The notes under the pieces: model-generated | Told to the model about the DNA's origin: nothing | The model's database searches: none | What the model saw: the letters and a program-made list of their open reading frames with translations, nothing else | Source: a virus | Strand: one strand, 5' to 3' | Virus record (IMG/VR): IMGVR_UViG_3300028840_006907 | Location: 288,001 to 352,000 of that record | DNA length: 64,000 nt | Part shown: piece by piece, positions 26,196 to 55,962 of the stretch | Position numbering within the stretch: the stretch's first letter is position 1 | Layout of the letters: each line of letters starts with the position of its first letter | Translations under genes and position numbers: made by a program

Positions 26196-26963
26196 ATGAT
26201 AGATGCGAAAAGAGTCGTTTTTTCATACTTAAATTTAAAAGTTGCCAAAGATATGACACCAGAAGAGGCAAAGAAAATAGTGGATAAAATGCCTCCAGGA
26301 AGATTTGATAAAATTAAAAAATTGTTACAGCCTTTTGCTAGATTGTTTAAAAAATCTTTTAATGTAAGAGATGCTGGTGTCCTTGATACTTTAGGAAAAT
26401 TAAGTAGGGCTAAGGGAATTCCTCTTGTTGAATTGTTAGCAGTAGCTTCTATCATGTTTGGTGCTACTGTTCCGTCTTATGCTGACACTGCTAAAGAAAA
26501 AGCTCCAATAGTTCAAGTAAAAGAGAAAAGGCCCATTTCTGAGGTAAGAGCGGATCTAGAAAAAGTTTTTGAATTACCAAAAGGTTTAATGACTCTTGTA
26601 AAAGTTACTCCTCAATTAGCAATAAATTTAAAAGGTATAGATGGATTTGTAGAGACCGTGGGTAAAAATCTCGATAAGAGTATAACTCCTGAAGTTTCAG
26701 TATTGTTAAATCAAGTCCCAGATAATCAATGGCCTGAATTATTGTCTGGTTTAGTAATGCAGAAAATTCAAGAAGATGATAAAGTTGATAAGAAATTTAA
26801 AAAGTTTATTAAACACCATAAAACTAGCCCTCAAAATATGAAAAAAGAGATAGCAAAAGTTGTCTCACAAGAGAAATCTGGCATTCAAAAATTTGTTGAT
26901 AAAGGCATGGCTGAGAAGGGCCTAGCTAAAAAAGCCCATGAAAGAGGCTATTTAATTTCATAA
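26196..26963 (+). CDS. hypothetical Lys-rich protein
   Basis: RBS aaaagggg; 255 aa; preferred over antisense ORF 26132-26455. Confidence 0.5.
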   Translation: MIDAKRVVFSYLNLKVAKDMTPEEAKKIVDKMPPGRFDKIKKLLQPFARLFKKSFNVRDAGVLDTLGKLSRAKGIPLVELLAVASIMFGATVPSYADTAKEKAPIVQVKEKRPISEVRADLEKVFELPKGLMTLVKVTPQLAINLKGIDGFVETVGKNLDKSITPEVSVLLNQVPDNQWPELLSGLVMQKIQEDDKVDKKFKKFIKHHKTSPQNMKKEIAKVVSQEKSGIQKFVDKGMAEKGLAKKAHERGYLIS

Positions 26964-27496
26964 ATAGCTGTCTTTGTAGTTTTCATACCGAAAAGTTTAA
27001 ATGGATATTTCCCTAAAAACAATTCTATTGCATCTTGGTATACGTATTCTACAGGATTTTGAAGAATTATAATTCCTCCTTTTCTCACTTTTGGAACAGC
27101 CTCTTTGATACAAGAAGATCTTGATCTACCATTTATGAAAATGATATCAAAAGAATGATCAGCAAAGTTATTTATATAATTTACATAGTCTCTAAAATTC
27201 TTATATAAATAAGCCGGTACAGTACTTCCGAAGCTCTCATGGCTGTAAGGAAAGGGTTTAGGGTCATCGATAGGTTCTATTAATTCATAAGTAAAATTTC
27301 CTTTATTAGGTCCTATCTGTTTTTTTAATGTCTCATATGTTTCTCTGTCATGTTCCACTGATACTACAGCTTTAACAGTTCTTCTGAAATAAATAGTAGA
27401 ATCTCCTGATCCATATTCAAAAGTGATCATGTCATATTCAATGAAACTTTTTAACCAGTCTATAGCTTCAGGTTCAATTGGGGGGTAAACTTCCAT
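26948..27496 (-). CDS. putative class I methyltransferase-like protein
   Basis: FEYGSGDSTIYF glycine-rich loop, DIIFINGRSR, KGGIIILQN. Confidence 0.5.
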   Translation of the reverse strand: MEVYPPIEPEAIDWLKSFIEYDMITFEYGSGDSTIYFRRTVKAVVSVEHDRETYETLKKQIGPNKGNFTYELIEPIDDPKPFPYSHESFGSTVPAYLYKNFRDYVNYINNFADHSFDIIFINGRSRSSCIKEAVPKVRKGGIIILQNPVEYVYQDAIELFLGKYPFKLFGMKTTKTAIYEIK

Positions 27497-27856
27497 TTAT
27501 TCTTCCTCTATTCTTTTTAGTCCAATATTTCCAAGTTCTTCATCATTAAGTTTTTCTAATTTTATATGTTCATTCATGATAATTACATAAAATGGAATAT
27601 CAATAGATGATTGAAAGATGTCAATTAAATCTTGTGCTTGTGCCTCGGTAACAGGCATTTTAGGTCTTATAATGACAAGATCATCTTCTTTCAATTGTAA
27701 CTTTTCTAATTGGTAATTTATAACGATGTTTTCTACATATTGTTCAGCTACCTCTTTTGGATTGTGGCTCAAAGTATATCCGCATTTGTCACATTTGCCT
27801 GTATAAAAATCGATAGCTTCATCTCTACATTCAGGGCATTCTATTTTTTTATCCAT
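27497..27856 (-). CDS. zinc-ribbon protein
   Basis: CPECRDEAIDFYTGKCDKCG (CxxC...CxxC). Confidence 0.45.
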   Translation of the reverse strand: MDKKIECPECRDEAIDFYTGKCDKCGYTLSHNPKEVAEQYVENIVINYQLEKLQLKEDDLVIIRPKMPVTEAQAQDLIDIFQSSIDIPFYVIIMNEHIKLEKLNDEELGNIGLKRIEEE

Positions 27857-27858
27857 TT

Positions 27859-28485
27859 CTAAAATTTCCTTTCTACAGTATCTTTGAATTTAATCATTTT
27901 CCCAGTTCCGGTTCCTATGTGAGGAAAAGGAGTTTCAAATTCATATTTAATGACACATTTTGGCCAAGTCATGGTTGATTTTCCTCTTCTTTGTACTTTT
28001 GTTGTTGTCACACTTCTATTGTTATCTTCTATAATGAATGTGCAAGGTAAATCCCAACCATCTACATAACGAACAGCTTCATAAAAATGTCCTTCATCTT
28101 CAGCTCCATCTCCAATAAAACACCATACTTTATTTTTGCTTTTCTCCATTTTTAAAGATAAGGCTATTCCGGTAGCTATAGAAGCGGTTCCTGCTAGTAT
28201 AGAAGATGACAGGAAATTTAATTTTTTATCGAAGACATGCATTGAATCCCCGTTTAATAATATCTTTTCAAGATCTTTTTCATTTCCTCCTGCTAGTAAA
28301 TAATGGTAGTGGGATCGATGGGTAGAAAGAATATAATCTCCTTCATTAACTTTTTTGAATATTTCAATAATTTGATCTTCATTTCCTCCATTTAAATATA
28401 TCAAATAAGGAAGAAGCCCTTCTTCAAAGAGTTCAATTACTCTCTTTTCAAAAGAGATAAGTTCATTTTTTGTTTTATTAAACAT
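27859..28485 (-). CDS. TPP-dependent dehydrogenase E1 alpha-like subunit
   Basis: HRSHYHYLLAGG and FIGDGAEDEGHFYEAVRYVDGWDLPCTFIIEDNNRSV match the GDG-x(~25)-NN TPP-binding motif of E1 alpha. Confidence 0.75.
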   Translation of the reverse strand: MFNKTKNELISFEKRVIELFEEGLLPYLIYLNGGNEDQIIEIFKKVNEGDYILSTHRSHYHYLLAGGNEKDLEKILLNGDSMHVFDKKLNFLSSSILAGTASIATGIALSLKMEKSKNKVWCFIGDGAEDEGHFYEAVRYVDGWDLPCTFIIEDNNRSVTTTKVQRRGKSTMTWPKCVIKYEFETPFPHIGTGTGKMIKFKDTVERKF

Positions 28486-29545
28486 AGTTATCTCCGTAAC
28501 ATTCTATTATTTGATGTATTATCTTATTTTTTGCCTCATTAGCACATTGATGTGTACAAGATATGTCAGGTCTAAAATTTTGAAAGAAATTTTCTGTATC
28601 TCGTGAGAACCAGGTTTCACTGAATTTTTTATTTTTAATGGATCCTACCAATCCTTTTGGAGAATAAGCCATATTGTGACAAGTATAGATATTGAGATCA
28701 GCTCCAATTACAGGTACTATTAACGAGAAGAAACATTTTTTGTATTCTCTTTTATTTACCATAGGAGATATATTGTAACTGTCAAAAACATCAATACCTT
28801 CAATTTGACTAGCATATATAGTATCCAATTGTTCTCTTACTTGATATTTAATGGTATTGTGATAGTTATAAAAATCAGGAACCCACACCGGGGAGAATCG
28901 TATATTATCTACACCCATTTTATGTACAAGTTGAAAAGCTTCTATTAAGAATTCACAATTTTCTTTTGTTATGATATAGTTGACCCCGAGATTACAGGAA
29001 CTTTCTTTTTTTGAAAAGTTAAGAACATTTTCTACTATTTGATGAAACATTTTAGGGGATGCTTTTCTCGATTCGATAAAACTTTTTTCATCCCAGTAAT
29101 CGATAGAAACTCTAATCCATTTAGCATGAGTCATAATATCAGCTATGTTTCCACTGAGGAATTGACCATTTGTTAATATGGAAAGATCTATTTTACACTC
29201 AAGAGTTTTTTCAAGTATTTTCTCAATACCTTTATGAATTAATGGCTCTCCTCCACCAGAATAGGTAATAGCTTTAACACCAATGTCTTGAAGATCCTCT
29301 AATATTTCCATCATCTTTTCTGTGGGAATTTCATCCACTCTTTTCATATCGTCATGCATTTTAGAAAAGGAATAGTTGTACACACAGAAGTAACAATTAT
29401 GACAACATCTATTGGTAGGTTTTATTCTGACATAGATAGGAGAAGTTACAACATCATTTCGAAACGATTTCAATTTATCAGGAAACCACACTATTTTATA
29501 GTTGTTGTATTTATTATTCATTGTCATAGAAACCTCGTGTTTCAA
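28478..29545 (-). CDS. radical SAM enzyme
   Basis: TNRCCHNCYFCVY (CxxxCxxC), YSGGGEPL, SILTNG; start uncertain (29545/29527/29521). Confidence 0.8.
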   Translation of the reverse strand: MKHEVSMTMNNKYNNYKIVWFPDKLKSFRNDVVTSPIYVRIKPTNRCCHNCYFCVYNYSFSKMHDDMKRVDEIPTEKMMEILEDLQDIGVKAITYSGGGEPLIHKGIEKILEKTLECKIDLSILTNGQFLSGNIADIMTHAKWIRVSIDYWDEKSFIESRKASPKMFHQIVENVLNFSKKESSCNLGVNYIITKENCEFLIEAFQLVHKMGVDNIRFSPVWVPDFYNYHNTIKYQVREQLDTIYASQIEGIDVFDSYNISPMVNKREYKKCFFSLIVPVIGADLNIYTCHNMAYSPKGLVGSIKNKKFSETWFSRDTENFFQNFRPDISCTHQCANEAKNKIIHQIIECYGDNYV

Positions 29546-30038
29546 TTAGCATCATAGAGGTTTCCCATTTTGCTGCCTCTTTATAATGGTATAAAATTTC
29601 TTCTGAGTTATTTAATCTGATAACAGGAAAATCTACCATTTTCGATACAGCTTCAGTATGGTCCTGGACATGAGTTATGCAACTATATAAAGGTTTTTCT
29701 TTTTTCCCAATGACAACTCTTATAATCACTTTAGGATCGTAATCACCGTTTGACATAACTTTTATTTTGTCTAAATGATTTACTATTGAATCTAGTGCAT
29801 TTAAAACAAAATCAAATCGTTCAAAATAAACAATTGGTTTGTATCCTCTGATGCTCATTCCTATGGCCATTCCTGCCATTAAGTTCTCGGCTACAGGTGT
29901 TTCGATTAATTGAGATTCCGGAACATCAATTAAGGTATTAGCTGCTCTAGTGTATTTTGTATTATATCCTATAAATACTGTTTTTTCTTGTTTAGCCAAT
30001 TCATTCATCGAGTATTTAAGAGCATCTATATATCGCAT
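29514..30038 (-). CDS. E1 beta-like (transketolase pyrimidine-binding) subunit, lacks the C-terminal domain
   Basis: MRYIDALKYSMNELAKQEKTVFIGYN...LIETPVAENLMAGMAIGMSIRGYKPIV follows the E1 beta N-terminal pattern; only 174 aa. Confidence 0.7.
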   Translation of the reverse strand: MRYIDALKYSMNELAKQEKTVFIGYNTKYTRAANTLIDVPESQLIETPVAENLMAGMAIGMSIRGYKPIVYFERFDFVLNALDSIVNHLDKIKVMSNGDYDPKVIIRVVIGKKEKPLYSCITHVQDHTEAVSKMVDFPVIRLNNSEEILYHYKEAAKWETSMMLIETRGFYDNE

Positions 30039-30656
30039 CTATTTAACCTTTTCTTTTGGTGTAATAATCAGATAACCTTGGTCTCGGTAATCTTTTGTGA
30101 CATCGTGTGTCTCTTTAAACATTTCAACAATGTAATTAGTACCATTTAAACCGTATTTAGGTCTGAAGTATCTGTAACGTGCTATTAAATTACCTGTTTC
30201 AAATGGCCCATCTTCATGATGATTTAGATCATCAATAATCATGACGTCTTTACCTTTTCGATATTTTTTTATCATTTCGAGTTCTAAGTTTAAAGGAAAT
30301 TTCAATCTTTTTGGAAGATCTTCATCATAGTGATGTCCATCTATCTGAAAGTCAGCTCCGGGAAAATGAGCATCTAAAAAGAAAAGAACTACATCAGTTT
30401 CTTTAACTTCATTTTTAAATAGTGATTCGAGTCCTACTGGAGATTCACAATTCAAAAAATTAATTCGTGGGTCTACAATATTTTTTGAGGTTTCATTGAA
30501 AAGTTTTTCGATAATTTCAATAGAGTGTATTTTTTCAAAAGGAAATCCTAATGCATATGTTACTCCTTCTCCTTTTCCCGTACCTGTCTCTATCATAATA
30601 TTGCATCCGTAATCTCTGATATACTCATCAAGTTTATGCTTGTTTAGAGTTCCCAT
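30039..30656 (-). CDS. methyltransferase-like protein, FLDAHFPGADF family, copy 1
   Basis: ETGTGKGEG glycine-rich loop, FFLDAHFPGADF, IIDDL, QGYLIITPK; paralogue of 32001-32615. Confidence 0.45.
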   Translation of the reverse strand: MGTLNKHKLDEYIRDYGCNIMIETGTGKGEGVTYALGFPFEKIHSIEIIEKLFNETSKNIVDPRINFLNCESPVGLESLFKNEVKETDVVLFFLDAHFPGADFQIDGHHYDEDLPKRLKFPLNLELEMIKKYRKGKDVMIIDDLNHHEDGPFETGNLIARYRYFRPKYGLNGTNYIVEMFKETHDVTKDYRDQGYLIITPKEKVK

Positions 30657-31513
30657 TATATTTCCCTTTGGTTAAAGTTTGGTGTATAAAATTGTTGAAT
30701 CGCTTTATAATCATGTGGTAAAAAGTATTTCTTTATCCATGTATATGTAGGCATTCTATTGTAGATATTTTGATCATGAGTTTTTATGAATAATTTATGA
30801 GGAGGAAGTACTTTACAACATAAAATAGCACAGAAAGAATCGCACCCAACATAATAACCTGCGTATTTTGACAGGGCTATTATTGAAGTTAAAGGAATGT
30901 CTTTTGGGGCTATGAAATGATTTAAAGTAGGTGCAACAGGTGTGTCTGAAATAATGAGAACCTTTAAGCCAGTCTTTATTGACAGGTTATTTATAAATTC
31001 CCAATCATCATTATTGATAACCGCTATATCACTTCGTGGTCTTGAAGAGGTTGGATAGTGCATTAAGATATATTTAAAAGGTTCTATTTTTAATCCATTC
31101 CAATCAATATCATCAACACTAGCGCTCATTAAAAATGATGACCCTTGAAAAGTTCTATTGGTATCCATTATCATTGGTACCATGTCTACGGGACGTACAT
31201 CATCTTCAGGTTTTATATTAAGTAATTCTTTTCCTATTGTGTAATCAGGTTCGATGTCAGATCTAAAATGCCAGAAGGTATCTTTTATCGGGCTAGATTG
31301 AAAGGTCCTTCTCATATTTTTTCTACCTACTTCTTCATCTATGAAGTGATGCTTTTTTACTCTGTAATAGATATTATGATCAATTATAGGAGCTATGCAT
31401 TTCCCAAATCTGCATGGCCAGTATATTTCAGTTATAGATTCTCTTTCTTTTTGAGTCATTAAAGCATCGATACACATCATATCTCCGATGCCGACAGAGA
31501 AGTAAATTTTCAT
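30656..31513 (-). CDS. putative GT-B (GT9-like) glycosyltransferase, GIGD family, copy 1
   Basis: N-terminal IYFSVGIGDMMC and C-terminal YVGCDSFCAILC loosely resemble heptosyltransferase motifs; tentative. Confidence 0.35.
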   Translation of the reverse strand: MKIYFSVGIGDMMCIDALMTQKERESITEIYWPCRFGKCIAPIIDHNIYYRVKKHHFIDEEVGRKNMRRTFQSSPIKDTFWHFRSDIEPDYTIGKELLNIKPEDDVRPVDMVPMIMDTNRTFQGSSFLMSASVDDIDWNGLKIEPFKYILMHYPTSSRPRSDIAVINNDDWEFINNLSIKTGLKVLIISDTPVAPTLNHFIAPKDIPLTSIIALSKYAGYYVGCDSFCAILCCKVLPPHKLFIKTHDQNIYNRMPTYTWIKKYFLPHDYKAIQQFYTPNFNQREI

Positions 31514-32001
31514 TATTTTTCTCCAAAAATCATAAATGAGTGAAATAGGTCCCTTTCGGAAGCATAAATATTTTTATAGCCTTTGTTTTTCATGTAATCT
31601 TGGATAATTTTAGGTGTAAAGATATGCCTATGTTTTCTATTGTTCCATGGCCTCCAATATTCTTGTTCATAATGAGGAAGGTATAAGAACAATATCCCTC
31701 CTTCTTTTAAAATTTCATACCAATAATCCATGGCATCTATCCAGTTTTCGATATGTTCTAAGCAATGACTTGAGAAGACATAATCGACATCTTTCTTTGG
31801 TAAATTTAAAGCATGATACCCATCATCGAAGATTAGGTCAATAGGAATAGCTCCAGGTAAAGCCCAGGATCCTTTTCTGCATCCTATGTCATAACCTGTA
31901 CCTTTACATAATTGTTGGGCATAAGGTATAGCGAATTTGGCTGCATAACCTTCTGCTTGAAAATGGGGGTAAAATTTATTATTGAATTCTATTAATTCCA
32001 T
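31513..32001 (-). CDS. class I SAM-dependent methyltransferase
   Basis: GYDIGCRKG, VDYVFSSHCLEHI, LKEGGILFLYLP. Confidence 0.7.
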   Translation of the reverse strand: MELIEFNNKFYPHFQAEGYAAKFAIPYAQQLCKGTGYDIGCRKGSWALPGAIPIDLIFDDGYHALNLPKKDVDYVFSSHCLEHIENWIDAMDYWYEILKEGGILFLYLPHYEQEYWRPWNNRKHRHIFTPKIIQDYMKNKGYKNIYASERDLFHSFMIFGEK

Positions 32002-32615
32002 TATTCCTCTCGTTTTGGTGTTATTATCATATATCCTTGTGATTGGAAATCTCTAGTAAGAGAATGTGTCTTTCCGAATGCATCAAAAAGGAATTTTGAT
32101 CCGGAGGTAGGAGATATTTCATGGGCTAAAGTATTCGGTCCATCTGTAAAGGGGCCACTCTCATAAAGGCGTAAATCATCAGTTATAATTATATCATTTG
32201 TGACATCTTTTAAAGATGTGATTACTTCTACTTCTTTCTCACATGGGAGTCTCGTATTATAATCAGGTTCACTATTATAATAGGTATAATGGAAGTCAGC
32301 TCCTGGGAAATGAGCATCTAAAAAGAACAGTGTGTTGCCTTTCAAGTCCTTTATGATTTCGGGCAGAATTTTAAATGAGTTACCGTGATAAATTTTACAA
32401 TTTTTCCCTTTTTCTTTTGATAGAGCATCAAATTTTTTTACTGCTTTTTTATATATCTGATCATAAATCTCTATTGAATAAAAATTTTCAAAGGAATAAT
32501 TTAATGCATATTCCAAGCAATCACCTTCACCGGTACCAGTTTCAACATAATTTTTGAGGTTAAACGATTTAATCCATTTTTCCATTTCTGTAATAACTTG
32601 ATTTATGTGTCCCAT
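32001..32615 (-). CDS. methyltransferase-like protein, FLDAHFPGADF family, copy 2
   Basis: ETGTGEGDC, FFLDAHFPGADF, IITDDL, QGYMIITPK. Confidence 0.45.
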   Translation of the reverse strand: MGHINQVITEMEKWIKSFNLKNYVETGTGEGDCLEYALNYSFENFYSIEIYDQIYKKAVKKFDALSKEKGKNCKIYHGNSFKILPEIIKDLKGNTLFFLDAHFPGADFHYTYYNSEPDYNTRLPCEKEVEVITSLKDVTNDIIITDDLRLYESGPFTDGPNTLAHEISPTSGSKFLFDAFGKTHSLTRDFQSQGYMIITPKREE

Positions 32616-32623
32616 TTAATTCC

Positions 32624-33286
32624 TTATCTATAATTGTAATTGACTTTGAATAAGTCTTTGAGGTGGTAATAGTTCTTTGGTCCCCATCTTGAAAAGAGAT
32701 CAATCTTTTTTGCCTTTAAAGTAAGCTTTTCCATTATGTAATTAAACACTGTATCGATTAATTGAATCTCTTCAGCATTTTCAATTACTTTGGACCAATC
32801 AATTACATTAAAACCTTCATAAAGAGTATTATCTATTATTCTTAAATTAGTGGTAATTGGTATGGGAAAACATTTACTATGAGGAGGAGTACCATAATGA
32901 ATATTTCTAAAGACATATCTCTCATTATCTTTTAAACCTAGTATTTTATAATAAAGTTCATTTTCTTTCTTAGGGAATCTTTTAAAATTAAAGTAATTGG
33001 TCCAATCCCTGTGATCCAGTCCTACTAATTTATACTTTCCTTCCATGATAGGACCTGGAATTATTTGATCCGCATTTTGTAGATCTACATAGAGGTCTAT
33101 ATTATCGGGTTGGCCAAGAGGTACGAATTCGACTCCTGGGCTTATGAGGTAATCATTATACCATAAAAATTCTTTTCTGACGGGCCATTTTACTTGATAG
33201 CCTTGGTGCACAAAGTGCTGACCAATTTTTTGACAGAAAAAGACATCTCCAATGCCAGCCGGTTGATTTATTACGCATAGTTTCAT
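32624..33286 (-). CDS. hypothetical, GIGD family, copy 2 (possible GT)
   Basis: N-terminus MKLCVINQPAGIGDVFFCQ parallels 30656-31513. Confidence 0.3.
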   Translation of the reverse strand: MKLCVINQPAGIGDVFFCQKIGQHFVHQGYQVKWPVRKEFLWYNDYLISPGVEFVPLGQPDNIDLYVDLQNADQIIPGPIMEGKYKLVGLDHRDWTNYFNFKRFPKKENELYYKILGLKDNERYVFRNIHYGTPPHSKCFPIPITTNLRIIDNTLYEGFNVIDWSKVIENAEEIQLIDTVFNYIMEKLTLKAKKIDLFSRWGPKNYYHLKDLFKVNYNYR

Positions 33287-34090
33287 TTATCCAATAATAT
33301 CCTTTAAGTATTTGTCGTATAAGATATCTTCAATTATGTCATACTGTAAGGCAATTTTGAAATTATTCTCAATATATTCCATCAAGGAATAATACAATTC
33401 AGGGGATAAATCCGATACATCAAAGTCATCTTTTAATGTTATGATACCACGACTATCAAAAAACTCTCCTACATCGGGACTCCCATGATATACTGGAACT
33501 GTACCAGTAGTAAAACAGTCCAATATTTTTTCAGTCCAGTAAGTTTCATATTGTGAATTTTCAATTGTAACGGAGAACATGTAATCTACCAGAGCAATTT
33601 CTTTTTTCTCTATTTCATTAAACCCTCTGCCGTAAAGATCTAATTTATCTCTTAATTTATTTACCCATGCTAGTCTGAAATTATGGCCAGCACACATCCT
33701 TTTAGCAGAACTCATCATTGAGGCTAATTTAGTCTTCTTATAAATTTTAGGTTCCTTTATCCAGTACCCGTGAGAGGTGATGTAATGGAAATTATCTGCA
33801 AGGCTGTAGATTCTTTTGTCATGGGTAAATAGGAGAGGATAGGATTCTGAAATTTCTTTTGCATGGGCTATTATGTTGTCTATTACATTAGGAATAATTG
33901 AACTGGATTCTACTACCCAGGCAATTTTATTCGTTTTATTATTTATGTTCGGAACTATTTGTTCATCTACGAAAAAAGTCAGATCTTCTTGTTTACCTTT
34001 AGACCAATCAAAGTACGTAGGTTTTTTCCATAGTGTAGAAGAATAAGCATGTTGGAACCAACCACCTATAAGTCCTATTTTCTTTTTCAT
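33287..34090 (-). CDS. GT10 (alpha-1,3/4-fucosyltransferase-like) glycosyltransferase
   Basis: YMFSVTIENSQYETYWTEKILDCFTTGTVPVYHGSPDVGEFF aligns with the Helicobacter FucT motif FNLCFENTQGYGYVTEKIIDAYFSHTIPIYWGSP (from memory). Confidence 0.8.
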   Translation of the reverse strand: MKKKIGLIGGWFQHAYSSTLWKKPTYFDWSKGKQEDLTFFVDEQIVPNINNKTNKIAWVVESSSIIPNVIDNIIAHAKEISESYPLLFTHDKRIYSLADNFHYITSHGYWIKEPKIYKKTKLASMMSSAKRMCAGHNFRLAWVNKLRDKLDLYGRGFNEIEKKEIALVDYMFSVTIENSQYETYWTEKILDCFTTGTVPVYHGSPDVGEFFDSRGIITLKDDFDVSDLSPELYYSLMEYIENNFKIALQYDIIEDILYDKYLKDIIG

Positions 34091-34710
34091 TACAGACCGC
34101 CCTTGATATAGAATGCATCACCCCATGTCCCTCCATCCCATGTGGTCTCAGCTCTTTCAAAACCGTATTTTGAAAGGAAAGAATCCAACTCAGTTACCAT
34201 GCAACAATTTTCATAGACTTGATCACGATTTACTTCAGCAATGATATAGTCAATCTTTCTTAATGTCTCTGTGCCCCCTTTAAAAACTTCCAGCTCAAAT
34301 CCCTGGACATCAATATTAATGAGGTTGCTAAAATCAGAAAAATAAAAGTTGTCTAATTTTTCTACTCTTATCTCATCCGATTCTTCAAACTTAATATGTG
34401 GGTACTGTCTTAAATGTATCAGTGGTTTTAATAAGGAGCTAGATTCTCCTTGATTGGATGATTTATAGAAAGTCTTAAAACATTCTTCCGGACCTAAAGC
34501 AATGTTATAAATTCTTACTCTAGAGTCGTCTTTGATATTCTCGTATAGTACTTTAAAGGAATCTGGATCGGGTTCGAAAAAGTTCATCTCTTTTATTGAA
34601 TCATATTTTATATAAATTTTATATTCTTCCCCATAATGGGCTCCTATATGAATGATCCCAGTAACATTCATGTCGTATTTGTTTATTAATCTATCGAAAT
34701 CAAGTAGCAT
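34090..34710 (-). CDS. FkbM-family methyltransferase
   Basis: IHIGAHYGEE, NIDVQGFELEVFKGG, IIAEV. Confidence 0.7.
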   Translation of the reverse strand: MLLDFDRLINKYDMNVTGIIHIGAHYGEEYKIYIKYDSIKEMNFFEPDPDSFKVLYENIKDDSRVRIYNIALGPEECFKTFYKSSNQGESSSLLKPLIHLRQYPHIKFEESDEIRVEKLDNFYFSDFSNLINIDVQGFELEVFKGGTETLRKIDYIIAEVNRDQVYENCCMVTELDSFLSKYGFERAETTWDGGTWGDAFYIKGGL

Positions 34711-36765
34711 TTAATCCTCCCACTTAAGTTCAATCTCTTGATGTGGGGAAATATTTTTTACCCCTTTAATATTTCTGATAGATAGTTTACGGCCTTCCAA
34801 ATATTTCTGATTAAATTCTCCTGCTGAAATATTACCATGTCTGTTAGGGTAAGCTCCAACAAGATTTACAGGTATATTAACAATTTTAGATTCGTCATAA
34901 CAGAGCATCATAGGTCTTTCTGGAATCTGTTTCATAAGAGCATCTTCGAAAGTATTAGGATTGTTATAGGTACCGTTTTTTATTGCACTCATTAAATCAG
35001 GTGTACGATAGATATTTCCATCAACACTCATGGGATACCCCCAATCCCCGGCATAATTTTTCCATTCCCATTTATTTTCTGAAGAAAGATCGGGAGGCGG
35101 AGATGGTATGTTTTGGGGATAACAGAAATTGATCCTAGAGCATAATCTCAAAGAGATGCTTAAGATCTCATCTGGATTTAATTTGTCAAAGTCATTTCTT
35201 AATTTGTACGGTTCTTTGAATACAATGTCATCAACTAAAAACATTGTATATTCTTTTTCGGTATTTACAGCATTTATAACTGAATCTTTAAAATCATTAG
35301 TTTGTTTATAAAAGTAGAATCCTGGATGATCTGAGATAACTTTATCATAACCAGCTTTAAAATCATCGTTACTGTATGTCCATATAATAGTTATTTTGAA
35401 TTCGTACCAGTTTTCCCAAAGTTCCTTTATACTTCTTAATAATAAATCTAGTTGACATGCCCGATCTTTACTGAAAATAACAACATTCATATTTTTTAGT
35501 CTTTTATAGGGAGGTCTTTGGAAGATCCCATGAGCACAGTCCCTCTGTGTAGACCCTCTTTTATGGTCATTGACATCACTTTCAGTATTATAGATGTAGT
35601 TAAATGAAGTTAATAATTTAGCGTGTGAAGGACCTGCCATTTCGAGCATGGGTATCATGAATGACAAATCTCCTGCCATATGCCAGAAAGTGTCACCAGA
35701 GATAAAATCTCTTTTATCTATTTTTCTAAACAGCCATGTTTTAAAGGTCCTTAAATGAGTGGCTCTCCAGTCGGTGGTTTTTCTGAGAAGGTCCCAATTG
35801 GGCATTTTTGCCCATCCATCTCGTTCACCTCTTCCATTATATTCTCTAAATTGTCCGAATGAGATCCAGGTATCCGGGTCTTTATAAGCTTCAAGGACTC
35901 TTTCAAAAACCTTATTGTCATCTGGTAGCCAGTCATCTCCATCAATATTTATACAAATATCTTGATTATTAATTTCGGGTCTATGTAAAGTATGATAATA
36001 ATTTCCGCTGACATATCTTTTTTCGGTATTATTTATAATAACAAATCGATCATCTCCGTAAGTATGCCTTTCAATAAAATCAAGACTGTTATCTGTAGAT
36101 AGGTCATTACAGATATAACATTTCCAGTTTCTTACTGATTGGTTTTTTATACTGTTGATACATCGGATAATGTATTTACCTGCATTCCAACATGGAGTGA
36201 CAATTCGTAATGTATTTTTTTCTTCTTGATATTCTTGTAACACTTTGACTTCAGGTTTGGTCTCTTCTTTTTGGATACTCTTTTTTCGAACAACAATTTC
36301 GAAGGACCATTCTCCGTACATTTTTAAGTCGTAACGTTCATGATGGATAAGTTCTACACCACCTATTTTTTGAAGAATTTCCCAGAGATCTTCCCAGCCA
36401 AAATGATGGATATGTTTTTTGTTACATCTTGGATCATCTAATGGATGATAATATTCTTTGTCTACTTGGTAGAGGACTAGATATCCATCATCTTTGAGTA
36501 TTCTGAGCCACTCTCTGAGGGTTGCTTCGGTATCATATATTTCTTCCAATAAATGACTGGAATAGACATAATCAAAATGTTTATCAGGGTAGCAGGGCAT
36601 GAGACGGGCGTCTATGGGCATGTCTGCGAAAGGACTTAAAAGATCTATCCCTATAGCATCAATTTTTATTTTTGTATTACCACAGCCTAAGTCAACTCCT
36701 TGACCTTGACAGTATTTGAGTAATCTATTTCTGCAATTATCTGTTTCTCCTTTATGTCTTTCCAT
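34711..36765 (-). CDS. 684-aa methyltransferase-GT2-unknown domain fusion
   Basis: ~36765-36271: class I MTase (VDLGCGNTKI, FDYVYSSHLLEEI). ~36213-35506: GT2 (IVTPCWNAGKYIIRCINSIKNQ, NIDGDDWL). ~35476-34711: uncharacterised domain starting VVIFSKDRACQLDLLLRSI. Confidence 0.8.
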   Translation of the reverse strand: MERHKGETDNCRNRLLKYCQGQGVDLGCGNTKIKIDAIGIDLLSPFADMPIDARLMPCYPDKHFDYVYSSHLLEEIYDTEATLREWLRILKDDGYLVLYQVDKEYYHPLDDPRCNKKHIHHFGWEDLWEILQKIGGVELIHHERYDLKMYGEWSFEIVVRKKSIQKEETKPEVKVLQEYQEEKNTLRIVTPCWNAGKYIIRCINSIKNQSVRNWKCYICNDLSTDNSLDFIERHTYGDDRFVIINNTEKRYVSGNYYHTLHRPEINNQDICINIDGDDWLPDDNKVFERVLEAYKDPDTWISFGQFREYNGRGERDGWAKMPNWDLLRKTTDWRATHLRTFKTWLFRKIDKRDFISGDTFWHMAGDLSFMIPMLEMAGPSHAKLLTSFNYIYNTESDVNDHKRGSTQRDCAHGIFQRPPYKRLKNMNVVIFSKDRACQLDLLLRSIKELWENWYEFKITIIWTYSNDDFKAGYDKVISDHPGFYFYKQTNDFKDSVINAVNTEKEYTMFLVDDIVFKEPYKLRNDFDKLNPDEILSISLRLCSRINFCYPQNIPSPPPDLSSENKWEWKNYAGDWGYPMSVDGNIYRTPDLMSAIKNGTYNNPNTFEDALMKQIPERPMMLCYDESKIVNIPVNLVGAYPNRHGNISAGEFNQKYLEGRKLSIRNIKGVKNISPHQEIELKWED

Positions 36766-36788
36766 TTTATTCCTCTAATTTAAATATG

Positions 36789-37337
36789 TTATCTGTTATC
36801 TTTTACAATCTGTTCTAATTGAGCTATACGATTTTTTAACTCAGTATTTTCAGTTTTTAATTTTTCTAATTCTTTCTCTTCTTCAATTTCGGTGTCTTTT
36901 ATCATAATGGAAAGAATTTCAATTTCAGCAGGTTTAATAATTTCTGGAAAATGTTCGAAATTAATTAAATAGAAATCTATTTCGATTTCTTCCTCCAGAA
37001 TTGAGTTGATTTCAGTAAAGAGTTTTTCATATTTATTTTTTAAATCAATAAGTTCAATTTTGAATTGAGGATTTTCTGCAACACCTTTAAATTCTTCGTT
37101 CTCGATGATGGGGGCATTATTTTCGTCTCTATCCACATATTTGGCACAAAGGTTTAGTCTCTTTTCTTCAAATTCATTTAAATCTTTTTGAAGGTTATCT
37201 AATATTTCGAGTTCTTCTTTTATCTTGTTTTTATTTTTTAATAAACCTAGTCCAAACCATTTGGATGCATCTATAATACTAACTCTTTGTATTGATTCGT
37301 TAATTTTTTTGATTTCTCCTCTTTTTATTTTAGCCAT
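36789..37337 (-). CDS. hypothetical coiled-coil protein
   Basis: 182-aa ORF; Glu/Lys-rich with C-terminal ELEKLKTENTELKNRIAQLEQ. Confidence 0.5.
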   Translation of the reverse strand: MAKIKRGEIKKINESIQRVSIIDASKWFGLGLLKNKNKIKEELEILDNLQKDLNEFEEKRLNLCAKYVDRDENNAPIIENEEFKGVAENPQFKIELIDLKNKYEKLFTEINSILEEEIEIDFYLINFEHFPEIIKPAEIEILSIMIKDTEIEEEKELEKLKTENTELKNRIAQLEQIVKDNR

Positions 37338-37344
37338 TTTTTTC

Positions 37345-37842
37345 TCACTCTGTCCTTGTTATGTTGTAAACTTCAGTTTTTATCTTATCTAATTTTTTAA
37401 GAGTATCTTTTAAATTTTTCTCTATATCAAAGATTTCTTTCACAAATACTTCACTAGCGTTATATTGACCTTTTTTTATTTGCATTATAGCTATTTGTCT
37501 ATGTTCCGGTTCTGAAAGTACAAGAACGGTATTATCAGGAATTTTTCTTGAAATTATAACAGTAGCTCCCCACATATAACCCATAATACCATTTCTTATA
37601 GATTCTTTTCTTGTCTCCATATCAATTGAATCTTTACAAAATTTTCTAATATCAACATAAGATCTAGAATTCATTAAAACTTCATTTACTCTATTTTCAT
37701 GTTTTTCTATTTCTGCAAATCCATCAGCTAAAATATCGGGTATAAAATTAGGAATAGGGCTTTTAATAATTTTCCTAATATTTAATGACTTGATGAATTC
37801 TTCATATTCTATGTCTTTTAATTCTTTCGATAGGTATGCCAC
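37345..37842 (-). CDS. hypothetical protein (shares xWGA motif with 38393 and 38722 genes)
   Basis: GIMGYMWGATVIISRKIPDNTVLVL resembles KIWGAQIWIAPEATEIKAY and GFLWKTPVLLIEEATEVKVY of neighbours. Confidence 0.5.
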   Translation of the reverse strand: MAYLSKELKDIEYEEFIKSLNIRKIIKSPIPNFIPDILADGFAEIEKHENRVNEVLMNSRSYVDIRKFCKDSIDMETRKESIRNGIMGYMWGATVIISRKIPDNTVLVLSEPEHRQIAIMQIKKGQYNASEVFVKEIFDIEKNLKDTLKKLDKIKTEVYNITRTE

Positions 37843-38393
37843 TATTCATCCCCTTTAAAGATAGTATCTAAAAGTGAACCTTTATTATCCGATAATATGC
37901 AATTTTCGAAATAGGTTTTGAAAGATAAAGCATTTATTAATCGTTGAAAATCGACTCTTATTATTTTAAAGAAATAGTCATAAGCACAAGATGGGCATAT
38001 ATGATATATTTCAGGTTTTCCAGAGTTTTCTGAAACAATATCATATTTAATACATGTACTCTTAGCAGGGATATTACATCCTTTGATAGAACATTTTTGA
38101 GCCCATTCAATTATCTCTATGAATACTCTTCCTTTTTCACCATTATAGAAATTTGTGTAGAAAGGATTTATTTTCATATAAGTAATAGGGAATATATTAT
38201 ATACAGTAAGAACCGTATGGGGCTCTTTCATTGTTGCATCGATATCTTCTGAATTTCGTGAAATATATAATTCAGAGTCACATTGCATAATTTCTTTAGC
38301 CTTATTTTTATCACTAGTGGCTATTACTACTCTGTATGAGAAATTCAAAAGATTATCAAAATATTTATCAGTTGTAAATACTTCTAAATTCAT
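37842..38393 (-). CDS. hypothetical Cys-rich protein
   Basis: CSIKGCNIPAKSTC...ICPSCAY putative zinc site. Confidence 0.5.
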   Translation of the reverse strand: MNLEVFTTDKYFDNLLNFSYRVVIATSDKNKAKEIMQCDSELYISRNSEDIDATMKEPHTVLTVYNIFPITYMKINPFYTNFYNGEKGRVFIEIIEWAQKCSIKGCNIPAKSTCIKYDIVSENSGKPEIYHICPSCAYDYFFKIIRVDFQRLINALSFKTYFENCILSDNKGSLLDTIFKGDE

Positions 38394-38731
38394 TATAATC
38401 CTAATCTTTTAATAGTATGAGCTATATTTGGGAAATCCTCTTTTAATATATTAAATTGATTTTTACTATATGCTTTGATTTCGGTTGCTTCAGGAGCTAT
38501 CCAAATTTGAGCACCCCATATTTTTGCACAACATCCTTTTTCAAAACGTTCCTTATTTTTTTCAAAATCAAAAAAATTGTATACTTCTCTTGCGTAAAAC
38601 CAGTCTTGTGGGCCTATAATTATATGATCAACTTCTTCTTTAGCGCTTCGTATTTTTGAAAATATCTGTCCAAAATATCCGATTATATCTTCTTCATTCA
38701 TTTTTTTTAAAATTGACATGTCTACTCCCAT
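38393..38731 (-). CDS. hypothetical protein, tandem paralogue 1
   Basis: Shares the ...W(G/K)...EATE(I/V)K(A/V)Y...F...(K/M)KDFPN pattern with 38722-39081; start 38731 or 38719. Confidence 0.5.
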   Translation of the reverse strand: MGVDMSILKKMNEEDIIGYFGQIFSKIRSAKEEVDHIIIGPQDWFYAREVYNFFDFEKNKERFEKGCCAKIWGAQIWIAPEATEIKAYSKNQFNILKEDFPNIAHTIKRLGL

Positions 38732-39081
38732 CGTACTTTTTGTAATAATAGATTGTTAGGGAAGTCTTTTTTCATATCACTGAAATTTCCTTCGTGGTAA
38801 ACTTTGACTTCAGTTGCTTCTTCAATTAATAATACAGGGGTTTTCCATAGGAAACCCACTAGTCCATCTTGAGAGTGTTCATGTTTTTCGATAGAGTCGG
38901 TGTCTAAATATTCTCTGATACCTGATAAGGATGTGAGATAATCCCAATCAATTCGATTTATTATCATATAGCGTGGTTTTTTCTCTTGTCTGATAAAGAG
39001 CAAAGAGATGTGATTAATTACTTTATTCTTTTTAGTATTTTTATTACCGGTTTTTCCAGCGATTTCTTTTAAGCTTGGCAT
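38722..39081 (-). CDS. hypothetical protein, tandem paralogue 2
   Basis: See 38393-38731. Confidence 0.5.
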   Translation of the reverse strand: MPSLKEIAGKTGNKNTKKNKVINHISLLFIRQEKKPRYMIINRIDWDYLTSLSGIREYLDTDSIEKHEHSQDGLVGFLWKTPVLLIEEATEVKVYHEGNFSDMKKDFPNNLLLQKVRWE

Positions 39082-39084
39082 TTA

Positions 39085-39759
39085 CTATTCCCGGTAAAAA
39101 GGTGGAAAGGAAACCCAATCTTTCATTCCTTTTAGAACGAGTCCATCTACATCTACCTGCATTCCTCCTACTATTTGGATCATGGGTTTGAACTTTTCAC
39201 AAATTCTTTTTATAAATCGGAAATCATGTTCAGGTTCATGTCTCCAAGGTTCTTCGATGGCCCATTCTCTTTTTACTATATAACAAGGAGTACCTACGTG
39301 GCATATGATAGGAAACATATGAATATCAATTTCAGGAACAAGAACAATTGTCTCGGGATCTCCATCTTTATACATCCGGGATTGCTGACATGACATCTGT
39401 ACTATACCAATCATGTTGTCACGGCAATTTGAGATGAGTGTTTCGAGATAAGTATCTTTGTAACGATCATCATCATCACAAAATACTAGGTATTGTCCCC
39501 GAGAAATTTTTATACCGTGATTTCGTGGTTTCGTTCCTGGAGAGATATCCATATTACCGTAATCTTTTTCGATATTACAGAATTGTGTCCAGGGTCCAGC
39601 AGTTTTCATTAAGTTAATGACATCTACAGGAGGTGGTCCATCATATACTATTATATGTTCAAAATTTTTAAAAGTTTGGTTTTTGAAATCGTTAAGTAAA
39701 TTTGATAGTTCTCTTACACCGCGAGAAGCAGGGGTAATAACACTGATAGTTGGTCCCAT
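39085..39759 (-). CDS. GT2 family glycosyltransferase
   Basis: ISVITPASRGVRELSNLLNDFKNQTFKNFEHIIVYDG and VFCDDDD (DxD). Confidence 0.8.
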   Translation of the reverse strand: MGPTISVITPASRGVRELSNLLNDFKNQTFKNFEHIIVYDGPPPVDVINLMKTAGPWTQFCNIEKDYGNMDISPGTKPRNHGIKISRGQYLVFCDDDDRYKDTYLETLISNCRDNMIGIVQMSCQQSRMYKDGDPETIVLVPEIDIHMFPIICHVGTPCYIVKREWAIEEPWRHEPEHDFRFIKRICEKFKPMIQIVGGMQVDVDGLVLKGMKDWVSFPPFYRE

Positions 39760-53408: not shown

Positions 53409-55859
53409 TTATATTTTATTATTTTTTCTAAGGAGAGCTATCTGACGTTTAATCCATCGAGGAGTTTCTTCAAGAGTTTCAGCCATTTGATTTCTTGTCA
53501 TCTTTCCACGATTATCTATTATGAATTGGAGCTTTTCTTCAGTCTTTCTATCTTTGGTACAACCAATAGGGTTTTTTGTAGATAATGTACCTTTTTTTTG
53601 TAAGAATTTTATTTGAGATTTAACCCATCGCTCTGTTTCATTGAGAGCTTTAGATAATTCTTTTTTAGTTTTATTTTTATAATTAGTGATTATATACTGC
53701 GTTTTTTCAGGGGTTCTTCTACATTTTGTTGAGAATTTAGAAATCTCTTTTAAATAGGTAAATTTCTCAGTGGGTTGTTTAATATTTATATCTTCAATAC
53801 ATTTTGAATTATATATTTCTTTTTCTCTTTTAGGATAAGGTTTAGTAACATAATTTTTTAATTTGTTAATTTTTTTCTTATCTCTTTTATTTTCACCTAT
53901 TAATAAGACATATTTATGTTTTCTTTCAGTAATAAATTTTTGAGCTTCAGATAATATATTTTTATTCCAATTATTCCATTGAACTTTAATTCCTTCTGGT
54001 ATGGTACTCATATTTTTAAAACCATTTTCTTTAAACCATTCCTTTTGAGAAATAATCCCTTGATTTTTACACCATTTTTTAAATGCTGATGTACGTTTTA
54101 GAGATTGAGCTGAAAAAGTCCTATTATTTTTAATGGAAGGATGTTTATATAAGTATGAACTTCCAAAGTTATTTCCTAGATAATCAAATCCACAAGCTTG
54201 GTAAATAGTCCCTATTTCAAGAGCTTTAGGATCAGCATAACCTATGAAAGCTCTTTTAGAAGTGTTATTAGCCATCCAATTACAAGCAAACCTTATAAGA
54301 CGGCTACCCAGGTTTTTCGGGGTCCATGAGGCAGTGGCACCTCTTTGAATTAAAGCTTCATATTTGGGAGTATCTTTACCTAGAATTTTGGAATATGCTG
54401 TGGGTTCATTTATAAATAATACTCCTGCGAGAATATTATTGTATCTGGCTGTGAAGCACCATTTTGGTATTACTCCAATTGTTCCTAACCATTCATATTT
54501 TTTTATAAATTGGACCATTTCATTATTAAATTTTTCTTCAGATAATGTAAAAGAAGTAGCTTTTAAAGAAGAGTGATTGAAATCGATATTTTTTTTATCT
54601 TCATCAATCCATTGAAGTTTCTTTTTATATTGGTGGCATATAAAAGTGGTCTTGTTTTTACTGTTAATTTTATTTTTTATTAAATCAATGATAATACCTT
54701 TTCGGATAGCTTCTTTTACATCATCAGACCAAAATCTAATCAAATTGGGTATATTTTTATTTTGGATTTCATCATTCTTAATATTTTCTTTTATTTTTAA
54801 TGCCCTTGGAGACGTATCATTTTCTCTTATTTCTTTACCATGCCAATAATTACCATCATATTGTACCCATAAGTTATAGCGAGGCATATAGAAATCAATT
54901 ACATGTTTAATAATTGGGTGCATAACTTGATGTTCTACAAAAGGATCAAATACAATAAGATAATTAAAAAAGTTATTTTCTTCATCTGAGGATGAGAAGG
55001 AATTATTTAGTTTAACTGTTTTATATGTTTTTTCTTTTATTTCAACATTCTGTTGGGGATTTTCAACGCCATATCTTTCAATATTAGTTTCAGTGATTTT
55101 TTTCTTAATCTCTGGAGATTGGAATACATTGTCAACCCCGTATCTTGATTGTACTGTTACTTTAACTTTTCTTTTTACTTCTTTAGATTGAGAGGGGTAT
55201 TCTACTCCTCGTTTTTCAATATTAGATTGACGGGATTTTTCTTTCATTGAGTTTAGTTGAGTAGAATATTCTACGCCATAACGTTTTTTAATAGTTTCGT
55301 TATTATGTTTAACTATATCTTCATTTATTTTATCTCGATTCCTTCTTAATCCTAGTTTAATAGCTCTTTCTCGGATGGCTTTCCAGGTCCTGTTTTCAAA
55401 GTAGAGCATAATAAATTCCATAGAATTCTTTTCATATACTTCTTTTAAAAGATCATCTTCTTTGGGTGACCAGAAGTCTTCCCTAGCAGGAGCGCTTTTA
55501 CCACCATCAATCATTTCTTGTTTAATTATTTCAGGATTTCTTTGAAGGTTTAATTTTTGAGCATTACTTCGGATGCTTTGCCATGATCGATTCTTGAATT
55601 TAGAAAGGATAAATTCTTTTGAATTATTTTCATATATATTTTTAAGAATATTTATCTCTTCGGTTGTCCAGGAATCTTTTCTTGGTCCTCTTTTTTTACG
55701 GTCTTCATTTATAAGGTCAGGATTACGGTGAAGATTTAGCTTACGTGCTTTTCTACAGATGGTTGTCCAAGATTTATTTAATTTGGAGATAATAAATTCT
55801 TTTGAATTATTTTTATATATTTCTTTTAATAAATTTTCTTCTTCTATTTTCCAACGCAT
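53409..55859 (-). CDS. free-standing homing-endonuclease-like mosaic protein (Myb/SANT x3, HNH-associated repeats, PD-(D/E)xK-like core, Mom/GNAT-like domain, C-terminal HTH repeats)
   Basis: ATG 55859 with RBS aagagg (track start 55916 less likely). Three W-x2-EE-x2-L...Y...W...I repeats. Four (R/K)(Y/R)GVExxxQ repeats. VIDFYMPRYNLWVQYDGNYWHG. NLGSRLIRF...FIGYADPKALEIGTIYQACGFDYLG. Confidence 0.65.
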   Translation of the reverse strand: MRWKIEEENLLKEIYKNNSKEFIISKLNKSWTTICRKARKLNLHRNPDLINEDRKKRGPRKDSWTTEEINILKNIYENNSKEFILSKFKNRSWQSIRSNAQKLNLQRNPEIIKQEMIDGGKSAPAREDFWSPKEDDLLKEVYEKNSMEFIMLYFENRTWKAIRERAIKLGLRRNRDKINEDIVKHNNETIKKRYGVEYSTQLNSMKEKSRQSNIEKRGVEYPSQSKEVKRKVKVTVQSRYGVDNVFQSPEIKKKITETNIERYGVENPQQNVEIKEKTYKTVKLNNSFSSSDEENNFFNYLIVFDPFVEHQVMHPIIKHVIDFYMPRYNLWVQYDGNYWHGKEIRENDTSPRALKIKENIKNDEIQNKNIPNLIRFWSDDVKEAIRKGIIIDLIKNKINSKNKTTFICHQYKKKLQWIDEDKKNIDFNHSSLKATSFTLSEEKFNNEMVQFIKKYEWLGTIGVIPKWCFTARYNNILAGVLFINEPTAYSKILGKDTPKYEALIQRGATASWTPKNLGSRLIRFACNWMANNTSKRAFIGYADPKALEIGTIYQACGFDYLGNNFGSSYLYKHPSIKNNRTFSAQSLKRTSAFKKWCKNQGIISQKEWFKENGFKNMSTIPEGIKVQWNNWNKNILSEAQKFITERKHKYVLLIGENKRDKKKINKLKNYVTKPYPKREKEIYNSKCIEDINIKQPTEKFTYLKEISKFSTKCRRTPEKTQYIITNYKNKTKKELSKALNETERWVKSQIKFLQKKGTLSTKNPIGCTKDRKTEEKLQFIIDNRGKMTRNQMAETLEETPRWIKRQIALLRKNNKI

Positions 55860-55962
55860 ATGAGTACCTCTTTTTAGTATATTACTTATTATAACAGGTA
55901 TTAGAGTTATTGTCAATATTTCATTTAATAAATATGGAATTCATTAATTTATAGGGAAAAAG

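Follow-up and report, generated by a model that had tools for sequence, protein, structure and literature searches.

A predicted glycosyltransferase and methyltransferase module of unannotated protein families in the glycan-biosynthesis island of a virus contig

Five consecutive genes were analysed computationally in a 64,000-nucleotide stretch of viral DNA (positions 288,001 to 352,000 of the IMG/VR record IMGVR_UViG_3300028840_006907, part of a 469,617-bp contig; the whole stretch is hereafter the window). Two of them encode proteins with an N-terminal GIGD loop (GIGD-1 and GIGD-2), two encode proteins referred to as FLDAHF-1 and FLDAHF-2, and the middle one encodes a methyltransferase, MT162. 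The locus combines glycosyltransferase (GT) and methyltransferase genes in a module of a known type, made up of unannotated families, and is described here by its folds, motifs, paralogy, operon structure and co-occurrence. Coordinates, strand and order of the five open reading frames (ORFs) are exactly as given in an initial annotation of the letters alone, which regarded them as a duplicated two-gene cassette. In transcription order they are:

33286-32624, minus strand: GIGD-2, 220 amino acids (aa), predicted compact GT-B, GT9-like glycosyltransferase; family A3
32615-32001, minus strand: FLDAHF-2, 204 aa, class I S-adenosylmethionine (SAM)-methyltransferase-like; family A1
32001-31513, minus strand: MT162, 162 aa, Methyltransf_23 methyltransferase (Pfam E 2.9e-12)
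31513-30656, minus strand: GIGD-1, 285 aa, predicted divergent GT9-superfamily glycosyltransferase; family A2
30656-30039, minus strand: FLDAHF-1, 205 aa, FLDAHF-2 paralog and member of alignment A1

At three of the four junctions within this block, stop and start codons overlap as TAATG; the fourth is a gap of 8 bp.

Neither GIGD-1 nor GIGD-2 matched any Pfam, NCBIfam or PHROG family, and sequence searches of the PDB with the single proteins and with their family profiles found nothing; a broadened GIGD-1 profile gave only TibC at E 0.19. Confident AlphaFold2 models, built from family alignments (predicted local distance difference test, pLDDT, 92.2 for GIGD-1 and 94.7 for GIGD-2), placed both proteins in the GT-B fold with GT9 enzymes as their nearest structures. 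A sequence bridge to GT9 was found for GIGD-1, in that 24 of 65 remote profile relatives match PF01075 weakly (best E 1.7e-6); profile and hhalign searches found no such bridge for the GIGD-2 family. An N-terminal G-[ILV]-G-D loop is present in 127 of 136 GIGD-1-profile relatives, and the Asp of the GIGD loop (D11 / D14) is invariant in both GIGD families, while D178 of GIGD-2 is less constant, with Asp in 37 of the 57 members of its family. The loop Asp presumably lies in the same place as D13 of WaaC, which we take to be the catalytic residue of the Gly-Asp loop that follows strand 1. As modelled, GIGD-1 and GIGD-2 would be compact GT-B glycosyltransferases, called GT9-like and not GT9 members because both miss the GT9 sequence test. 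In BFVD the GIGD-2 model also matched giant viruses of eukaryotes, namely the uncharacterised protein Q89398 of PBCV-1 (E 7e-13) and uncharacterised proteins of Bodo saltans virus, Hyperionvirus and Heterosigma akashiwo virus.

A GIGDxxxC start had been proposed as common to the two GIGD proteins. The GIGD loop does occur in both, the longer motif being imprecise, as the loops read GIGDMMC and GIGDVFFC. Sequence alignments beyond the N-terminus were negative. BLASTP of GIGD-1 against GIGD-2 aligned about 29 N-terminal residues at E 0.53, hhalign of the two family profiles covered 16 N-terminal columns at a probability of 2%, and the broadened GIGD-1 profile gave no hhalign match to the GIGD-2 family. 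When the profile of the GIGD-1 family was run against 1.84 billion representatives, it retrieved 344 relatives, and no match to the GIGD-2 hidden Markov model was found among the best 150 of these. Since both proteins are GT9-like by predicted fold and share no sequence match, they are therefore at most very distant relatives, members of different families and not copies from one cassette.

The FLDAHF proteins are homologous, aligning end to end with 35% identity (E 1e-33), and all of the motifs previously listed as shared (ETGTGxG, SIEI, FFLDAHFPGADF, IIxDDL, GPF and QGY(L/M)IITPK) are present. The family has no NCBIfam or PHROG entry. FLDAHF-2 is a borderline match to Pfam Methyltransf_4 (25.9 bits, cut-off 24); 17 of 57 family members match the same model, and other members show weak matches to Methyltransf_12, 23, 24, 25 or RrnaAD. 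Searched against the PDB, the FLDAHF profile matched methyltransferases exclusively, over its N-terminal half and with E values of 0.005-0.2.

In the 57-sequence alignment A1, which includes FLDAHF-1 and FLDAHF-2, motif I (E25-T-G-T-G-x-G) is almost completely conserved, with E25 and G27 in 57/57 and T26, T28 and G29 in at least 55/57, and strand 2 ends in an acidic residue, E or D, at position 49 (57/57). Motif I and an acidic strand-2 residue of the SAM ribose-binding type are the features expected of a class I methyltransferase. Other invariant residues are S80, D100-A-H102 (within L-D-A-H-F-P-G), P104-G105, E128 and D146-D147, and P124, E128, H184 and Q193-G194 are also conserved; every family-invariant residue is kept in both proteins of the window. 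A hhalign comparison with a window-encoded Methyltransf_24 protein (E 9.5e-4, probability 22%) placed VETGTGEG opposite VEMGTNHG, SIEI opposite SIDL and FFLDAH opposite FIFYDMH. We conclude from these sequence features that FLDAHF is probably a divergent, unnamed family of class I SAM-dependent methyltransferases.

A scan of IMG/VR yielded at least 198 confirmed FLDAHF relatives, of which 80 loci were kept for counting, and at least 305 confirmed relatives of the GIGD-2 family, with 77 loci used for the reverse counts (individual loci are given below by L numbers). A GIGD-2-family gene lies on the same strand in 64/80 FLDAHF loci, within 2 kb in 60/80 and directly adjacent in 31/80; conversely, FLDAHF is found in 52/77 GIGD-2 loci and is adjacent in 31. 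Two tandem GIGD-2-family copies often stand beside one FLDAHF gene, and FLDAHF is located upstream of the GIGD-2-type GT in 22 loci and downstream in 42. MT162, which had been treated as a spacer, proved to be a conserved member of the module, linked as tightly as the GIGD-2 family, with a homolog less than 2 kb from FLDAHF in 49/80 viral loci and directly adjacent in 35/80. The recurrent viral unit is thus a trio of the GIGD-2 family, MT162 and FLDAHF, usually with GT10-like and FkbM genes upstream. The order FkbM, GT10, family A3, family A1 is kept in L248, L085 and many other viral loci. This trio is widespread among aquatic T4-like phages and seems to be exchanged as a whole. Homologs of the families also occur in the cultured cyanomyoviruses S-T4, S-SM2, Sf-CH5/8 and Mel-JY01.

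A different picture was seen in bacteria, where the 80 FLDAHF loci examined (L168-L247) contain the GIGD-2 family once and GIGD-1 not at all. These loci are located on the chromosomes of Chitinophagaceae, Nitrospirillum/Azospirillum, Phycisphaerales and Burkholderiales, and their neighbouring genes encode GT4 transferases and an MsbA-like ABC exporter (31/80 each) as well as further methyltransferase-like proteins. A conserved, unannotated gene of about 289 aa lies directly upstream of bacterial FLDAHF in 22 loci. It was considered as a GT9-like candidate and rejected on test; it looks like a methyltransferase by eye and has no Pfam hit.

In the window, the five genes are part of a run of 19 minus-strand genes without a gap of more than 23 bp, which is therefore regarded as a single operon. 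Its other features referred to here are:

26948-39759, minus strand: the 19-gene operon around the five genes, all intergenic gaps at most 23 bp
39085-39759, minus strand: GT2
34711-36765, minus strand: methyltransferase+GT2 fusion, 684 aa
34090-34710, minus strand: FkbM methyltransferase, upstream partner (Pfam)
33287-34090, minus strand: GT10-like fucosyltransferase, upstream partner (Pfam)
29514-30038, minus strand: thiamine pyrophosphate (TPP) E1-like, beta/transketolase-pyr-like half
28478-29545, minus strand: radical SAM/SPASM-like gene, TTG start, 32-bp overlap
27859-28485, minus strand: TPP-dependent E1-like, alpha-like half of the split enzyme

The radical SAM/SPASM-like gene sits between the two TPP E1 halves, a gene order shared by L085. 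The GIGD-1 homologs of S-SM2 and L086 come instead after a zinc-dependent alcohol dehydrogenase gene and full-length E1/transketolase genes. The arrangement of a split TPP E1 with a radical SAM gene points to an unusual pathway for a branched or acylated sugar.

GIGD-1 is much rarer than GIGD-2, with 22 clusters at 90% identity and presence in 4/80 FLDAHF loci. Elsewhere it comes after TPP E1/transketolase-like genes and before a PfkB sugar kinase gene without a second FLDAHF, and no FLDAHF gene follows it in L015, L019, L020, L036 and L086. Adjacency of GIGD-1 and a following FLDAHF gene was found only in the window's own contig and in its close relative L085, where the two proteins are 69% and 79% identical to those of the window. 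With its ties to the TPP/radical-SAM sugar-tailoring genes nearby, the GIGD-1 and FLDAHF-1 pair is an addition specific to this lineage. The co-occurrence expected of the two families thus held for GIGD-2 and FLDAHF across viral contigs and failed for GIGD-1, whose link with FLDAHF is restricted to this lineage.

The operon lies in a glycan-biosynthesis island of about 35 kb (window 4336-39759, both strands), which also encodes:

a 994-aa GT2+GT1+methyltransferase fusion
UDP-glucose dehydrogenase, epimerases, a nucleotidyltransferase and a formyltransferase
a PIG-L deacetylase, a 4,6-dehydratase and a DegT aminotransferase
NeuB and a cytidylyltransferase (nonulosonic acid)
a hexapeptide acyltransferase, a sulfotransferase and several methyltransferases

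No Wzx, Wzy, ligase or initiating-transferase genes were found in the window, and hydropathy analysis of ORFs of at least 100 aa found no multi-pass membrane protein in the island. The window contains no tRNA gene, and megablast of its 26-40 kb region against GenBank phages returned nothing. T4-type genes for the portal, gp15 and PhoH are present in related loci; the viral assignment of the locus rests on its IMG/VR homologs and on these T4-like markers.

The region may be best understood as part of a virus-encoded glycan assembly line. Each GT9-like enzyme would add one sugar to a growing glycan, the Asp of its N-terminal loop being the likely catalytic base and its C-terminal domain binding the nucleotide-sugar donor, and FLDAHF, with the adjacent MT162, would methylate that sugar or the glycan. 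The invariant D-A-H at the end of strand 4 may be the active-site motif of FLDAHF; its arrangement with the invariant DD pair is presumably like that of the residues that bind metal and act as base in metal-dependent sugar O-methyltransferases. The GIGD-1/FLDAHF-1 pair would serve the sugar produced by the TPP/radical-SAM genes next to it. This reading as a whole, with sugar addition by GT9-like enzymes, methylation by FLDAHF and MT162 and a second pair for the TPP/radical-SAM sugar, is held with moderate confidence. What we infer are the donor sugar, the acceptor (a virion protein, a glycan of the host envelope or other), where the methyl group goes and which of the two steps comes first. The suggestion of a transfer plus a modification enzyme, made in the initial annotation, was reasonable and agrees with the predicted glycosyltransferase-like and SAM-methyltransferase-like roles.

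Several observations count against this interpretation. Neither GIGD protein matches PF01075 (Glyco_transf_9), even at E <= 1, and hhalign of the GIGD profiles against Escherichia coli WaaC was weak (probability 3-4%). In these weak alignments HYPTSSRP of GIGD-1 stands opposite HATTRDDK, and GCDSF of GIGD-1 and IDTVF of GIGD-2 stand opposite SVDTG; these two WaaC segments hold the TTRxxK and VDTG motifs, which we take to be donor-binding. Against E. coli WaaF there were weak local matches at most. FLDAHF-1 has no match in Pfam, PHROG or NCBIfam, every GIGD and FLDAHF homolog record found is labelled 'hypothetical protein', and no heptose-pathway genes were found in the window. Furthermore, FLDAHF does not depend on a GT9-like partner, because the bacterial loci are without the GIGD families, and the linkage of GIGD and FLDAHF could come from shared membership of the island and not from consecutive chemistry. 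Outside the window, the homologs in S-T4 (L088) and S-SM2 (L089) adjoin genes for ADP-heptose synthase/kinase, phosphoheptose isomerase and cytidylyltransferase, a context that fits the predicted heptosyltransferase-like activity.

FLDAHF may instead act before the transfer, by methylating a nucleotide-activated sugar or by other SAM-dependent tailoring, with the GT using the product. This seems rather unlikely, while keeping some weight. NDP-sugar epimerase and dehydratase genes are intermixed with the module genes in viral loci, and the GIGD-2-family and FLDAHF genes often have an epimerase or 4,6-dehydratase gene between or beside them (L001, L006, L008, L017 and L067); FLDAHF-1 of the window is an immediate neighbour of the TPP/radical-SAM sugar-tailoring genes. 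The one point against this reading is that metal-dependent sugar O-methyltransferases with D-x-(D/H) and DD motifs, as far as is known, act after glycosyl transfer. The variable order of FLDAHF and GT genes is uninformative about the order of steps.

It is improbable that the families are not specifically coupled at all and are merely frequent in the same hypervariable T4-like glycan island, so that their adjacency is incidental. Gene order and spacing vary widely, epimerase genes also co-occur often, a GT10-like gene is present in 50/80 FLDAHF loci (within 2 kb in 28/80, adjacent in 12/80), and bacterial FLDAHF genes lack GIGD partners. However, the GIGD-2 family is the commonest neighbour of FLDAHF within 2 kb, well above GT10 (60/80 vs 28/80), and the linkage is reciprocal. 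The pair is still adjacent in L248, the closest relative of the window, where FkbM and GT10 genes are followed by genes for a GIGD-2 protein of 70% and an FLDAHF-2 protein of 73% identity. In L085 the pair was swapped as a whole between conserved flanks: the GT10, MT162 and TPP-beta proteins are 80-83% identical to those of the window, and the interval between GT10 and MT162 (L085 2637-5510, window 32001-33286) holds different GIGD-2-family and FLDAHF genes of 34-39% identity, together with two small ORFs and an 82-aa FLDAHF fragment with 53% identity to FLDAHF-2. This interval looks like a module replacement at a cassette-replacement hot spot, which argues that the GIGD-2-family and FLDAHF genes move and function together.

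A tandem duplication of a single ancestral GIGD and FLDAHF cassette, the copies of which then diverged, was the proposal of the initial annotation and is now very unlikely. The GT-like-then-FLDAHF order does repeat, the FLDAHF copies are homologous, and the two GIGD proteins have the N-terminal loop and GT9 as nearest fold in common. Only the FLDAHF half of the supposed duplication, however, is borne out by sequence, as the comparisons of GIGD-1 and GIGD-2 given above offer no support for the other. FLDAHF-2 has homologs elsewhere with 73%, 64% and 53% identity, and the best non-self relatives of FLDAHF-1 show 44-48%. The two are probably old paralogs or separate acquisitions and not the outcome of a recent tandem duplication of a cassette, because each resembles some protein of another phage more closely (73% for FLDAHF-2, 48% for FLDAHF-1) than it does the other copy (35%); these identities point away from sister pairs that exclude the homologs of other genomes. 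In addition, the nearest relatives of FLDAHF-1 (L067, L054, L045 and L032) adjoin GIGD-2-type and not GIGD-1-type genes, and GIGD-1 homologs elsewhere have no following FLDAHF. The notion of a conserved pair duplicated in tandem was thus not upheld, given the different GIGD families, the ancient divergence of the FLDAHF copies and the narrow occurrence of the GIGD-1/FLDAHF-1 adjacency.

Hypermodification of phage DNA with methylated glycans, in place of a protein- or lipid-linked glycan, is extremely unlikely: phage GT-B enzymes do add mono- to trisaccharides, including heptose, to 5-hydroxymethylcytosine (bioRxiv 10.1101/2023.12.21.572611) and the window encodes a Mom-like protein (53409-55916), but the cytosine C5-methyltransferase (C5-MT) and 5-methylpyrimidine dioxygenase (5mYOX) partners were not found among the operon and island genes scanned in the 64-kb window. 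In the known clusters of this type, the GT stands next to a C5-MT and a 5mYOX or hydroxymethylase (bioRxiv 10.1101/2023.12.21.572611), and the defining GT-adjacent partners (C5-MT with 5mYOX/TET or ThyS-like) are absent from the scanned operon and island genes of the window.

The 835-aa protein at 53409-55916 (minus strand) combines a Mom-like DNA-modification domain with DUF7487 and HNH/homing-endonuclease-like regions, and this Mom-like/HNH match was the only one obtained in PHROG typing of the right-hand 24 kb. Nine of the ten large ORFs tested in 39997-64000, including that for a 1228-aa protein (59979-63665), have no Pfam or PHROG match, and the GC content climbs to about 0.40 past 60 kb.

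This study offers a first functional reading for three families that are annotated as 'hypothetical' everywhere, and shows that they move together, as a linked module, within the glycan islands of phages. The glycan chemistry of phages, including methylated and possibly heptose-containing sugars, thereby becomes testable in culturable phages. The lipopolysaccharide (LPS) of marine Synechococcus is reported to lack heptose; if so, a phage-made heptose glycan in S-T4 and S-SM2 would be notable. A bolder and doubtful proposal is that the set of a compact GT9-like GT and FLDAHF, with or without MT162, is a virus-specific, swappable 'serotype cassette' of aquatic T4-like and huge phages, placing methylated heptose-type sugars on virions or on the surface of the infected cell. 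If true, swaps such as the one that separates L085 from the window would give phage-made glycans the kind of diversity that O-antigen loci have in bacteria.

Among known enzymes, the GIGD proteins resemble GT9 members (WaaC 2h1f, WaaF 1psw, 3tov, and the protein heptosyltransferase TibC 4rap) in their predicted GT-B fold, but they are smaller (220 and 285 aa compared with 320-380 aa) and only 8-15% identical to the GT9 structures. FLDAHF has motif I, the acidic end of strand 2 and the Asp motif ending strand 4 in common with class I SAM methyltransferases (the TrmB-like Methyltransf_4 and the CmcI/TylF-like clan of Methyltransf_24), whereas its C-terminal 100 residues (P124, E128, DD, H184 and QG) resemble nothing known. 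No description of the GIGD or FLDAHF families was found in the literature. The principle of a GT beside a tailoring methyltransferase is itself standard. Hypervariable GT-rich islands are known from cyano- and pelagimyophages, where modification of the host O-antigen is assumed (PMC7029224, which does not mention these families). These 'LPS-like' islands share the setting of the present locus, being T4-like contigs with many GTs, nucleotide-sugar enzymes and methyltransferases, although the island of the window, at about 35 kb, is far larger than those of typical T4-like phages. The capsid-glycan enzymes of PBCV-1, a virus whose Q89398 the GIGD-2 model matches, are likewise a virus-encoded set of GTs and sugar methyltransferases.

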